Source of the DNA: Candidatus Latescibacterota bacterium
Lineage (GTDB): Bacteria > Latescibacterota > UBA2968
Assembly (NCBI GenBank): GCA_965208125.1
Contig: OZ242320.1
Span: 1,408,001 to 1,472,000, forward strand
Reading direction: 5' to 3'
DNA length: 64,000 nt
In this document: positions 37,474-41,400 of the stretch, piece by piece
Position numbering within the stretch: the first letter of the stretch is position 1
Layout of the letters: the number at the start of each line of letters is the position of its first letter
Program-made: the position numbers and the translations under genes
The notes under the pieces: model-generated
What the model was told of the DNA's origin: nothing
Seen by the model: the letters and a program-made list of their open reading frames with translations, nothing else
The model's database searches: none

Positions 37474-38046
37474 ATGCGCATCATTGCTGGGGAATTTAAG
37501 GGCCGCCGCATCCCCTTTAACAACAAAAAGTACGGCAATGCCCGCGTCACATCCGACTTTGTCAAAAAAGCCGTATTCTCTTCCCTTGGCGAAATCCTCT
37601 ACGGCAGTTATTTCCTCGACCTCTTCTCCTGCTCTGGTCAAATCGGCCTCGAAGCCTGTAGCCGTGGTGCGCAGGTGGTCATCAACGAACCCGACCGCCG
37701 CTGCAACCGCTTCATCGCGCAACTCATACACAATTGGCATCTCAATGACCGCATCTATCTTTACGCGCGATCCGCACAAAAACTCCTACCTCAACTCGCA
37801 CATTCAAATGTCCTATTCGACATCATCTACCTCGACCCCCCCTATAACCAGCAATTAGACGGACAACCCATGTCCTGCGCCATACTCACCCGCCTTGCAA
37901 CAACGCCGATACTCGCGCCCAACGCCCGCATCCTCGTCCAACACGCCTCTCGTACAACACTCCCCAAATCCTTTCCCAACCTCGCCCTGTCCCGAGAAAA
38001 AAAATACGGCGACACAACATTGAGCACATACACCCTCACTTTCTAA
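37474..38046 (+). CDS. rsmD: RsmD-family 16S rRNA m2G966 methyltransferase
   Basis: MRIIAGEFKGR, FLDLF..SG.IGLEA.SRGA, DPPY, KKYGDT. Confidence 0.88.
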   Translation: MRIIAGEFKGRRIPFNNKKYGNARVTSDFVKKAVFSSLGEILYGSYFLDLFSCSGQIGLEACSRGAQVVINEPDRRCNRFIAQLIHNWHLNDRIYLYARSAQKLLPQLAHSNVLFDIIYLDPPYNQQLDGQPMSCAILTRLATTPILAPNARILVQHASRTTLPKSFPNLALSREKKYGDTTLSTYTLTF

Positions 38047-38047
38047 C

Positions 38048-38076
38048 TTGCGATCCATCGCCAAAATCACTATGTT
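38048..38076 (+). promoter_or_regulatory. Sigma70-type promoter for the small TGA-containing gene
   Basis: TTGCGA-N17-TATGTT. Confidence 0.5.
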
Positions 38077-38119
38077 TTAACAATTGCAAAAGCCATTATA
38101 CCTGAAGGAGGAATCAGTA

Positions 38120-38395
38120 ATGGACAAACTCAGTTCCGCTGTCGATTTTAGGCCGCGCAGCCGCCAGCTTTACATGGGCGACATGCCCTGGCTCCCGCGC
38201 ATTACAGATAAAGCCCGCGCAAAACTGCGAGGCTGCATCGGTGACTACGTCTATCCGTGACCAGCTGACCGAAAGTTCCTGGAGGAACTCGGAGTTGAAG
38301 CTGAAGAATTTACAAACATCGTCGCATCCAGCCCGACCGATGCCGAAGTCATCGAAAAAGTAAAACCCATCTGGGACAAGTCGCATTCTAAATAA
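38120..38395 (+). CDS. DUF5069-like small protein with in-frame TGA at codon 47; candidate selenoprotein
   Basis: AAGGAGG RBS; MDKLSSAVDFRPRSRQLYMGDMPWLPRITDKARAKLRGCIGDYVYP-TGA-PADRKFLEELGVEAEEFTNIVASSPTDAEVIEKVKPIWDKSHSK. The family-like pattern continues past the TGA. Confidence 0.8.
38258..38299 (+). promoter_or_regulatory. Putative bacterial SECIS element
   Basis: UGA-c-CAGCU-GA-CCG-AA-AGUUCC-[UGGA]-GGAACU-CGG-AGUUG. Apical loop is 19 nt from the UGA, with G at loop position 2. Confidence 0.7.
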
Positions 38396-38396
38396 C

Positions 38397-38429
38397 AAAA
38401 AAGCCGCCACATTGTGTGGCGGCTTTTTT
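38397..38429. terminator. Bidirectional intrinsic terminator
   Basis: A6-GCCGCCACA-TTG-TGTGGCGGC-T6. Confidence 0.9.
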
Positions 38430-38443
38430 ATTGCCATTATAGA

Positions 38444-41400
38444 TCACGACCCCAATCTTTCGCCCCCATTTCTTAGAGCCACTGGTTTTCCACCCACCGG
38501 TTTGCCAAATCCCTGTACAAAAATCAGAAAATCGCTGAACCCCACCATGCCATTGCCATCCAGATCGTATTTTTTTTCAAAACCCGCATCACCCTCCGAC
38601 AGACCAAACTTACCGGCAAAAAGCAAAAAATCTGTGAACCCTACCGCACCATCCCCATCAAAATCCAGATTTGCAACACCGATACCCGGCCTGATCAGTT
38701 TCACCTCTACGCTCTTGCCATCCTGACAGATAAACGCCACAACCGTCTGATCCTCGCCTCCATCTACAATCTCTGCCAGTTCATAGGACTGATCCAAACG
38801 CCATTTTCCGCGCACCGTCACCTCTACCTTCCGAGGCTCACTCGCCTGATTGACAATTAGCGACCCATCCTGCCGGTGCGGCGTCTGAATCTCCCAATTC
38901 CACCCAAAATCCGGATCAGCCACCGAAAGCAACAACCCATCACCTATCTCGCGGGACATCACCAAACTCGGCAAAGACACAGACTCAATCTGACCTTTCG
39001 TCGGCCTTGCATCCGCATCGAACAGCGCATAGCCCGTCGCCTTCATCCCTCGATGATGCACAATATGTGCCTCGCGATCTCGTTGCCACACATCGTATTC
39101 CGGTGAACTCGCAAACGCGCTTACCCTATCAGGCGACCTCTGAACCAGCACCGCATAGTGATATGACGCATCCTGAGGCATAGGACCGTGATCTACATAC
39201 GCCAATTCAAAAGTTCCTGTACCACCCTCTTCACCAAAATCTCCGGGGGCTTGCACCTGGCGCTGCACCCGTAGCCCTTCACCATCCGGAACCACATACC
39301 CATTGCCCAATGAATCCATCAGCCATGCCCTCTGCCCCTTTGTTCCCGCAAACGCATAAGGAATCGTCTGCACACGCTCCCCATTCACCCCCGTAGGCCG
39401 ATCCTCAGAAATAGCCGCCTGAAACAGAGGCGTCACCGTCGCATGCCCGCCATCATCATTCTCAATACCAGACCCCAGGCAAACAAGCACATCGTCAAAA
39501 CAAAACACCGTCTTAACCGCCCGAAAACTCGTATTGAATCTCGTATCGTGCAGCTTCAATGCAAACACACCGTCTTGCCCTTCAATATTCACCCCACCCA
39601 CAAAAGTCTCATCCGAAAAATTGCGGTCACGTCCCTCGTGTTTGAGCTGCTCATGGCTCAGGCGAATCACCGTCGTACCGGGCCACATACTCCAATCCCA
39701 CCCATCTCGCACAATCCCACTCGCCTCACGCGTGACCGGGTCGCCACTGCCGTAAATCAGCATCGAACCATAGCTCAGATAACGACCGAGTTGATTTTCC
39801 CCACCGGCTGACGATTCAAAATCCCACACGTACTTGCTCCACCCCTTCATACTCACCATCCAGTCCCCACGCCGATGTATGGACAGCGCGCCATAAGGCA
39901 ACGTCCAGTGCCCAGAAGGTGCAGCGATCGGCGGGTATCCCGCACTTGCAAAATCCATCATCATCTGCATCGCACCCGGCGTGTGCAAATACATAATCCG
40001 AGAAGCTACCTGTTCGAACAAACCCTCTATCAGCAACTGCGATTGAGGTCTCCAGAGTTGCATAAACGTACCCGCCAGTTCTGCATCCACCGAAGGAAAG
40101 CTCAAAGCCATATACATATACGCTGGCAAAAGACCATCGGTAACCGTTGTATTAAGCGGAAAGCGACCACCGATAGCTGTTGAAATATCATACGTATTCG
40201 TCATAACTTTGGCCGTCAACAGCGCCTGCTTCAAATTATCGCGCCTATCATCTGCAACCGCAAAAGGCGTATCGCGCAGCAAATACACCAGAATTGAAGC
40301 CACATGAAAAGCATGTGGCGCATACGCATTGGCGTAAATACCCCGATGGTGAAAACCCACAAAATCCGGCTTAATCGTATCCAACCACCCCGGCGCAATA
40401 TCCAGCGCATTATTCAACCACGCCACATAGCGATGCATATTCGCCACCTTCTCGGGCGTATCCTCCATCATCAAAATACACAACAACCGATACATCCCTA
40501 CCGAACGCAAAAAATCTGCATTCGTGCCCGGATCCCAGTCCTCTTCATATAACTCGCCAAACATGCTATACCATTTCAAACTCGCCAATTCCCGTTCCAG
40601 CCGCTCCGTATCCTCCAGAATATCCCGCATCAAATACACGGCATGGGCATAGCTCGCAATCCGCAAAAACTCGTGATGCAATGCGCCAACACCACTGCCA
40701 TCTGCCCATCCTTGATCGTGCAAATAATCGAAAACATCTATCACCCGATCACGCGCCTCATCATTCCCATTCAACCGATAATCCAGCACCAGACGCAACA
40801 AAACATTTTGAAAAACACTCTGAAAATAGGGCCTGTAGGATGATCGAGCCGCAAACAGGGGTTTACCCAGAATGAGGTCATCTTCCCGCCGAATCTCGTA
40901 ATTTGCGAGATTGCTATGCCCACGCCTTATATAGGCTGTAAGTTCATTGAGCCGAATCCTCACAGGCTCCCGCTGATCATTCTTCACCCCATCACCTATC
41001 ACCCACGCCTCATACCGCGCCGCAATCGTCTCAAGAGCCAGCCTCTCATCATCGGTAATCTGCGAAGGAAGCGGACCCGGCAATCTATTCAGACTCCATC
41101 TGTATTCGCGGGTTCTCTCGCCACTTGTATTTATACCTCCATTCACAAATGGAACCTGTGCATCGGGAGATCGCCTGGAGTCAATCCTTTCCAATAACTC
41201 CATCAAATCCAGATACACAGTCCCGCTATTTGGCGCACGGATATCAAACGCCGTCACCCGTCCATTTCTCGGACCCGTATAAGAATTATTCCGCGCATCC
41301 TCTTGCAAATTGATCCACATCGCCCGCCAGCCTGTAAAATTCAAGCCAAACTCAAATTGATAACGCGGATTATTTGCTGCCAATTCAGATCCCGTACCAA

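Follow-up and report, generated by a model that had tools for sequence, protein, structure and literature searches.

A stretch of 64,000 nucleotides from the genome of a Candidatus Latescibacterota bacterium (GenBank assembly GCA_965208125.1, contig OZ242320.1, positions 1,408,001–1,472,000 of the forward strand), referred to below as the window and numbered from its first letter, carries a small gene of the DUF5069 family that is interrupted by an in-frame TGA codon. Sequence comparison indicates that this is very probably a genuine selenoprotein gene, in which UGA is read as selenocysteine (Sec) at residue 47 by means of a selenocysteine insertion sequence (SECIS) hairpin, and a redox role is proposed for Sec47. 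As far as can be judged from the sequences, the recoding mechanism is the standard bacterial one, and the short DUF5069 subfamily is a previously uncatalogued selenoprotein family that is common in Latescibacterota and Poribacteria.

The proposed course of events, in which we infer the insertion of selenium, the binding of SelB and the redox role, starts from an mRNA hairpin downstream of the UGA. With its apical stem of 5–7 base pairs (GUUCC/GGAAC) and its UGGA loop, this hairpin would serve as the SECIS element, to which SelB with Sec-tRNA(Sec) would bind in order to deliver Sec at UGA47. The product would belong to the short DUF5069 subfamily, with 91 residues, four helices and Sec47 placed before helix 2. 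There, the residue may act as a lone redox-active nucleophile that is regenerated by an external reductant, making the protein a small selenol-dependent oxidoreductase.

Reading frame and the residue at codon 47

An earlier note on this DNA had listed a ribosome-binding site, the ATG start, the in-frame TGA, a 44-codon extension of the open frame past it to a TAA and a terminator, all of which can be read directly in the sequence (Table 1). The start is consistent with the N-termini of the orthologs (MD...), and a terminator prediction tool placed the stem at 38403–38420, with the T-run tail GGCTTTTTTA on the plus strand and a mirror site on the minus strand. The promoter-like motif that the same note had assigned to the gene was not recovered by a sigma-70 consensus scan of 37800–38700, which covers this promoter type only and returned 0 sites. 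A 107-residue open reading frame (ORF) of the minus strand also runs across this segment; nothing supports it, unlike the plus-strand product, which has a Pfam match.

Translated through the TGA, the product matches PF16798 (DUF5069) with an E-value of 2 × 10−16 and a score of 60.8 bits (cut-off, 27). The match extends over residues 12–83, across the TGA, and its coverage of the profile is partial (positions 4–75 of 133), the protein stopping at residue 91. In the sequence alignment with PDB entry 3omd, the one family member of solved structure (residues 12–79; E-value, 1.2 × 10−11), a Cys faces the TGA position. Both alignments bear out the DUF5069 motif given in the earlier note, in which the UGA falls on a Cys. 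Variable sites among 20 sequences of the window's genus are distributed over codon positions 1, 2 and 3 as 10/4/30 in codons 48–88 and as 3/0/24 upstream of the TGA, while 22 of the codon columns 48–88 vary synonymously only and 11 alter the residue. By these counts, the frame downstream of the TGA is under purifying selection.

The window's own genome and 40 relatives yielded a full-length ortholog in 37 cases, with TGA as codon 47 in 35 and TGC in two; one further genome had contig-end fragments, and three had paralog-level matches only. In a wider survey of 168 Latescibacterota species genomes, 120 had a match at an E-value of ≤1 × 10−12, giving 121 rows, all of which were extracted and translated (the TGA-form locus L211 is interrupted by a contig end). 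One TGA was present in 104 rows and none in 17, the latter being 15 Cys orthologs and two longer Cys-bearing paralogs, so that TGA occupies the aligned codon in 104 of the 119 orthologs and Cys in the other 15. The TGA-form orthologs reach down to 43% protein identity with the query, the orthologs are collinear on either side of the TGA, and Cys (TGC/TGT) is the only alternative at codon 47 in the loci examined. Of the 80 loci obtained from named species genomes, 61 carry TGA and 19 carry Cys.

A search of the phylum Poribacteria matched 168 of 176 genomes. Among the 150 matches listed, 142 have one TGA and eight have none; the codon position was verified in 18 labelled loci. These 18 belong to a set of 23 Poribacteria-labelled loci, the other five of which carry Cys at the same codon. 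Further Cys forms come from loci titled Gemmatimonadota-type or Opitutales, and the protein database contains Cys forms of the short DUF5069 subfamily of about 90 residues. Thus, the TGA is not unique to the window, and the pairing of TGA with Cys that the earlier note had anticipated was found in both phyla. A tree of 142 orthologs, calculated with the Sec/Cys column masked, requires at least six Sec/Cys changes; since it is unrooted and based on a short alignment (about 90 columns, quick search), it does not give their direction.

Five database proteins (P0003, P0004, P0005, P0006 and P0012) have W at the position of Sec47, which could be taken to mean that the UGA is read through without Sec, either by near-cognate insertion of Trp or Cys or under a variant genetic code. 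The YP-x-GADKK context of these proteins is that of the TGA-bearing DNA loci, so it appears that the gene caller read TGA as W. The entries are probably an annotation artefact, in which a TGA=Trp code applied to short metagenome contigs hides selenoproteins. In the window, TGA terminates 18 of the 41 ORFs of at least 250 residues (some of these overlap and may be spurious), and therefore the code is standard and TGA is otherwise an ordinary stop. Considered together with the hairpin conserved at SECIS distance and the complete Sec machinery described below, this makes read-through without Sec a very improbable explanation.

Parts of the stretch are contained in sponge and marine metagenome runs. 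Contigs from RNA libraries of three studies, 95–99% alike, cover 38095–38382, 38138–38398 and 38138–38399; they span the TGA, with no difference listed at 38258–38260, and a contig from a DNA run extends beyond the terminator. The earlier note had allowed for a misread TGC, TGT or TGG at this codon. The TGA is unchanged in the three RNA-library contigs and in the DNA-run contig, which argues against a sequencing error, and the RNA-library contigs lend weak support to expression.

The hairpin and the selenocysteine machinery

The minimum free energy (MFE) structure of the segment following the UGA has the apical stem, the UGGA loop and the 19-nucleotide (nt) spacing from UGA to loop that were described in the earlier note; the hairpin starts 15 nt after the UGA. 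Bacterial SECIS elements, such as that of fdhF and those modelled in bSECISearch, are stem-loops located after the UGA, with an apical loop about 16–37 nt away and a conserved G in the loop. The hairpin of the window gene agrees with this description in its stem-loop 15 nt after the UGA, its loop after 19 nt and its GG at +21/+22, and is distinguished by an apical stem and loop that are almost sequence-invariant over two phyla. In selD of the same genome, the loop is GGU, the stem has 7 bp and the UGA-to-loop spacing is 20 nt; hence, the two genes agree in having GG at +21/+22 relative to the UGA. Folding of 53 nt from the UGA gave −15.8 kcal/mol (z-score, −2.49; 2 of 200 shuffles as good), and the 71-nt fold had a z-score of −1.32 (20 of 200 shuffles as good).

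For the comparison of Sec forms, 167 segments were reduced to 104 distinct sequences of 60 nt, and 103 of them were aligned; L137 was left out, and the window sequence substitutes for its identical locus copy. The loop is UGGA in all 103 sequences, and the five core pairs are all formed in 102. Pair 24–37 is G-C in 58 sequences, C-G in 45 and unpaired in none, and pair 23–38 occurs as A-U (50), G-U (30), G-C (10), U-A (7) or otherwise (6). With these compensatory changes, the hairpin is conserved and covaries in homologs, the behaviour for which the earlier note had proposed to look. Overall, 92.9% of the cells are paired, and shifting the 3' partner column by 1–3 lowers this figure to 24–65%. 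Pairing is less consistent in the lower stem (72% of cells), where some covariation is seen.

The codons that make up the stem and loop are nearly frozen. TTC is found in 101 of the 103 sequences, GAG in 102, and GAA in 97 with GGA in the other six, and the Leu codon is CTG in every sequence, despite six synonyms. The GGA variant retains a U-G wobble at the price of a Glu-to-Gly change. Pro46, which lies outside the hairpin core, is encoded by CCG (59), CCC (37), CCT (4) or CCA (1), and Phe64 by TTC (66) or TTT (37); synonymous freedom is also seen at Ala49 (four codons) and Asp50 (two codons).

In the Cys forms, the hairpin has decayed: among 21 distinct Cys-form segments, the five pairs are kept in one, the TGGA loop in four, and both together in none. 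The two Cys forms from the window's genus, with 94–96% protein identity, have synonymous breaks of core pairs, one through an AAG-to-AAA change and the other through GAG to GAA. Such decay would be expected of a hairpin that is needed only as long as UGA occupies the codon. The near-identity of the hairpin in Latescibacterota and Poribacteria hints at gene exchange between the phyla.

Profile searches of the genome recovered selA (577.8 bits), the adjoining selB (396.2 bits) and selD (364.8 bits), all above the curated cut-offs, as well as tRNA-Sec (70.1 bits, also above its cut-off), which was called tRNA-SeC with the anticodon TCA by ARAGORN. The earlier note had seen no sel genes in the window and had named them as genes to look for in the genome; all four map elsewhere on the chromosome. 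selD contains one in-frame TGA and, by its sequence, is itself a selenoprotein gene.

If the TGA were a true stop, the locus would be a pseudogene or a truncated ORF of 46–58 residues, and the downstream frame and hairpin would be leftovers or products of chance. Genetic code table 11 indeed gives only a 58-residue ORF (the protein search has a 58-residue entry, P0023, whose sources are given as '-', the sign for the window's own protein), and the folding z-score of the single sequence is weak. This explanation is nevertheless considered extremely improbable in view of the TGA that 104 species genomes keep at a single codon, with protein identity to the query down to 43%, the purifying selection on the frame after it, the synonymous sites frozen solely within the hairpin, Cys as the only alternative at the codon, and the Pfam domain and 3omd alignment that cross the TGA.

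Several observations also weigh against recoding as Sec. Cys replaces Sec in the 15 Latescibacterota orthologs, two of them within the window's genus, which means that Sec is dispensable. The G-C to C-G swap divides one family-level clade from the rest, and, the sequences being related, the independent covariation events are probably few. With modest z-scores of −1.32 to −2.49, thermodynamics alone is weak, and the cross-species comparison carries the case. An Rfam scan of 37900–38600 (E-value ≤ 10) returned no SECIS match but sub-threshold matches only, mostly on the terminator. Finally, the RNA-library contigs, given their degree of likeness, may stem from related organisms, and DNA can be present in libraries of this type.

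The DUF5069 protein and the possible role of Sec47

Comparison with database homologs places the window protein in the short DUF5069 subfamily. The AlphaFold2 model, calculated from a 29-row alignment (predicted local distance difference test, 81; predicted template modelling score, 0.68), consists of four helices (25–37, 48–57, 61–70 and 74–89) and two very short strand elements. Helix 48–57 places residue 47 directly before helix 2 in the model. The model matches only 3omd (Foldseek E-value, 1.5 × 10−4; template modelling score, 0.78; Z, 12.7; root-mean-square deviation, 2.0 over 84 residues), an uncharacterized DUF5069 protein from Leptospirillum rubarum of the same family and fold, which has a Cys in the motif ...Y-x-Y-x-C-P-x-D...; 3omd has 145 residues and a Cys, whereas the window protein has 91 residues and would have Sec. 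In fold searches beyond 3omd, the next chain had a Z of 3.9 and nothing was better than a Foldseek E-value of 3. As regards thioredoxin-like folds, no chain was above Z 3.9 after 3omd, a comparison that leaves room for unlisted families. Since there is no fold match beyond 3omd, function is not derivable from the fold. A homodimer prediction with two copies of the Cys-form alignment A4 scored 0.02 (mark, 0.42), which speaks neither for nor against a dimer.

Invariant or nearly invariant residues of the orthologs include Arg13, Arg15, Trp24, Arg27, Asp30, Lys31, Arg33, Gly41, Tyr43, Tyr45, Pro46, Cys/Sec47, Ala49, Asp50 and Phe64. Sec47 follows the conserved YxYP motif and is the sole conserved Cys-like residue of the subfamily. 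The nearby Cys39, to which the earlier note had drawn attention, is indeed present, and in all 20 sequences of the window's genus; the remaining 17 orthologs have T or N there, so that Cys39 is confined to the genus and does not qualify as a conserved partner.

The genome contains five DUF5069 matches, and the window gene is the only one with an internal stop, the other four being without. Among the longer DUF5069 copies examined, those that have the Cys are 3omd, the second domain of a 283-residue paralog, L232 and L233. This paralog (L026, 1063–1914, plus strand) has two tandem DUF5069 domains, with the Sec47-aligned Cys in the second only. In relatives, open frames of 435–479 residues surround two DUF5069 matches.

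Redox-active Cys residues are typically nucleophiles at the N-terminus of a helix. With its Tyr/Tyr/Asp and Arg/Lys environment, Sec47 resembles the site of oxyanion or sulfoxide reductases, by analogy only. Methionine sulfoxide reductase A likewise has a single Cys/Sec at a helix N-terminus with Tyr and acidic surroundings, the counterparts of which in the window protein would be Tyr43, Tyr45 and Asp50; the two proteins share no sequence or fold similarity, and this likeness, too, is an analogy. It is established knowledge, and stated in a recent review (PMC13188914), that Sec stands in for a catalytic Cys in nearly all known selenoproteins. The DUF5069 selenoprotein is most likely, at a low level of certainty, a single-selenol redox protein. 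As a resolving Cys is lacking, recycling of the selenol would need an external reductant. More tentatively, the short DUF5069 proteins may possibly form an unrecognised class of single-selenol enzymes, with a relative-less fold and an oxyanion- or sulfoxide-like substrate, which would be reduced or carried by a lone Sec at a helix N-cap between two Tyr, an Asp and an Arg/Lys cluster; the enzymes would be encoded by a near-universal core gene in two candidate phyla with many sponge symbionts.

The redox role has its own difficulties. The UxxC or CxxU motif present in most families in Table 1 of PMC13188914 is absent from the window family, the local sequence being Y-P-U-P/G-A-D with no Cys within three residues. 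A second conserved Cys was not found in the orthologs, many of which have no other Cys at all, and the fold matches no known oxidoreductase. The Cys is missing from the 137-residue and 158-residue paralogs and from the first domain of the 283-residue paralog. Moreover, no neighbouring gene is common to the Latescibacterota and Poribacteria loci, the synteny conserved within Latescibacterota being absent from Poribacteria.

In the main alternative, the protein would be a genuine selenoprotein in which Sec47 acts as ligand or carrier instead of redox catalyst: its selenolate would bind Hg, Cu, As, Se itself or another soft metal or metalloid and so serve in detoxification, trafficking or delivery. 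Sec47 being the sole conserved Cys-like residue is compatible with such a function, the conserved Arg13, Arg15, Arg27, Lys31 and Arg33 could hold an anion, and several metal-binding selenoprotein families are included in the 2026 catalogue (PMC13188914). Tight binding of soft metals usually takes at least two thiolate or selenolate ligands, of which one per chain is conserved here, and no conserved metal-resistance or transport genes adjoin the gene, so that we regard the ligand or carrier function as rather unlikely. Neighbouring genes and fold decide neither for the redox role nor for the metal or metalloid role.

Genomic context, novelty and significance

The features of the locus and of the Sec machinery are listed in Table 1. 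A gene of the rsmD-like PF03602 family is located directly upstream in 33 Latescibacterota loci, preceded by the gene for a TPR-rich protein in the window's genus. On the downstream side, the loci of this phylum have either a polysaccharide lyase gene of family 8 or other genes. A relative of the converging 1090-residue window gene matches the domains of polysaccharide lyase family 8 (Lyase_N, Lyase_catalyt and Lyase_8). The window protein itself ends in two DxDGDG/DLDGNG-type repeats, which look dockerin- or EF-hand-like by eye. In Poribacteria, UPF0182 is the upstream neighbour, and the next gene on the downstream side is that for a chorismate mutase/prephenate dehydratase.

Table 1. Positions of the predicted features (window coordinates unless a locus is named).
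Feature	Position	Strand	Remark
TPR-rich protein, ~800 aa	34949–37462	+	precedes the rsmD-like gene in the window's genus
rsmD-like methyltransferase	37474–38046	+	PF03602 in ortholog cluster
Truncated 58-aa ORF	38084–38260	+	table 11 result, TTG 38084 to TGA
Shine-Dalgarno-like AAGGAGG	38105–38111	+	8 nt upstream of ATG 38120, read off the sequence
Putative DUF5069-family selenoprotein coding sequence, 91 aa	38120–38395	+	TGA as Sec, stop TAA 38393–38395
Putative Sec codon UGA, codon 47	38258–38260	+	in frame, aligned with Cys in homologs
SECIS-like hairpin	38262–38303	+	MFE structure
Hairpin lower stem	38262–38266 with 38299–38303	+	
Hairpin middle stem	38269–38272 with 38289–38292	+	
Hairpin apical stem GUUCC/GGAAC	38275–38279 with 38284–38288	+	
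Hairpin loop UGGA	38280–38283	+	
Intrinsic-terminator-like hairpin with A-run and T-run	38397–38429	+	common to the converging minus-strand gene
Converging gene, 1090 aa	38444–41716	−	bidirectional terminator in common with the DUF5069 gene
selD in-frame TGA	locus L014, 2392–2394	−	...GG-U-ASK... context
tRNA-SeC	locus L017, 1497–1594		directly beside selD

Other matches with one internal TGA, in families that have selenoprotein members, were observed in the same genome. These candidates are an Fdh-like molybdopterin protein (C1:2700863–2702917, plus strand), which is under the family cut-off, a SelW/Rdx-like protein (C1:1615389–1615607, minus strand), and nine of 26 AhpC-TSA (Prx-like) matches, e.g., C1:2419514–2419885 and C1:5058321–5058695, both on the minus strand. 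The CMD match of the genome has no internal stop. Taken from sequence, the candidates suggest a sizeable selenoproteome, and, as they are present, the window gene was rejected as the reason for keeping the Sec trait.

The inventory in Table 1 of a May 2026 review (PMC13188914), which describes itself as the most comprehensive, comprises 119 prokaryotic selenoprotein families or subfamilies. PF16798 has 0 occurrences in the review, and neither it nor DUF5069 is anywhere in that table, in agreement with the earlier note, whose author knew of no such selenoprotein family. No NCBIfam family was matched at an E-value of ≤1, and DUF5069, PF16798 and IPR031849 were not found in the literature searched, outside of which subscription papers and unseen supplements might contain them; the string 3OMD occurs there as an unrelated abbreviation. 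The selenoprotein literature found for Poribacteria concerns hydrogenases, and that found for Latescibacter, judged at the level of title and abstract, does not deal with the window gene. BSepDB is restricted to previously reported families, and DUF5069/PF16798 was not found in the part of its supplement examined, which excludes the family Table S2. DUF5069 is likewise not among the nine new families of deep-Sep in the available part of that work, and two motifs of the window protein were not found in the accessible supplementary files of the GOS study, the sequence of GOS_A being another one. For computationally predicted bacterial families based on DUF or hypothetical proteins (such as DUF523, DUF3179, DUF166, GOS_B and GOS_C; PMC13188914), the same kinds of evidence have served, namely Sec/Cys pairs, TGA orthologs in several Sec-using species and a SECIS-like hairpin shortly after the UGA (PMC12013277).

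With this finding, the approximately 119 families listed in 2026 would be joined by one whose predicted fold is all-helical and apparently not of the thioredoxin type. Standard annotation misses the gene: its output is a 58-residue stub or none at all, and some database entries have W in place of Sec. The finding also singles out residue 47 as the critical site of DUF5069, for which a structure has been solved. The interleaved Sec and Cys forms, with decay of the hairpin in the latter, would provide a natural example of how a SECIS element inside a coding sequence constrains codons and residues (the FLEE motif). Since most genomes of these two uncultured phyla contain the gene, it bears on the use of selenium by these often sponge-associated bacteria.

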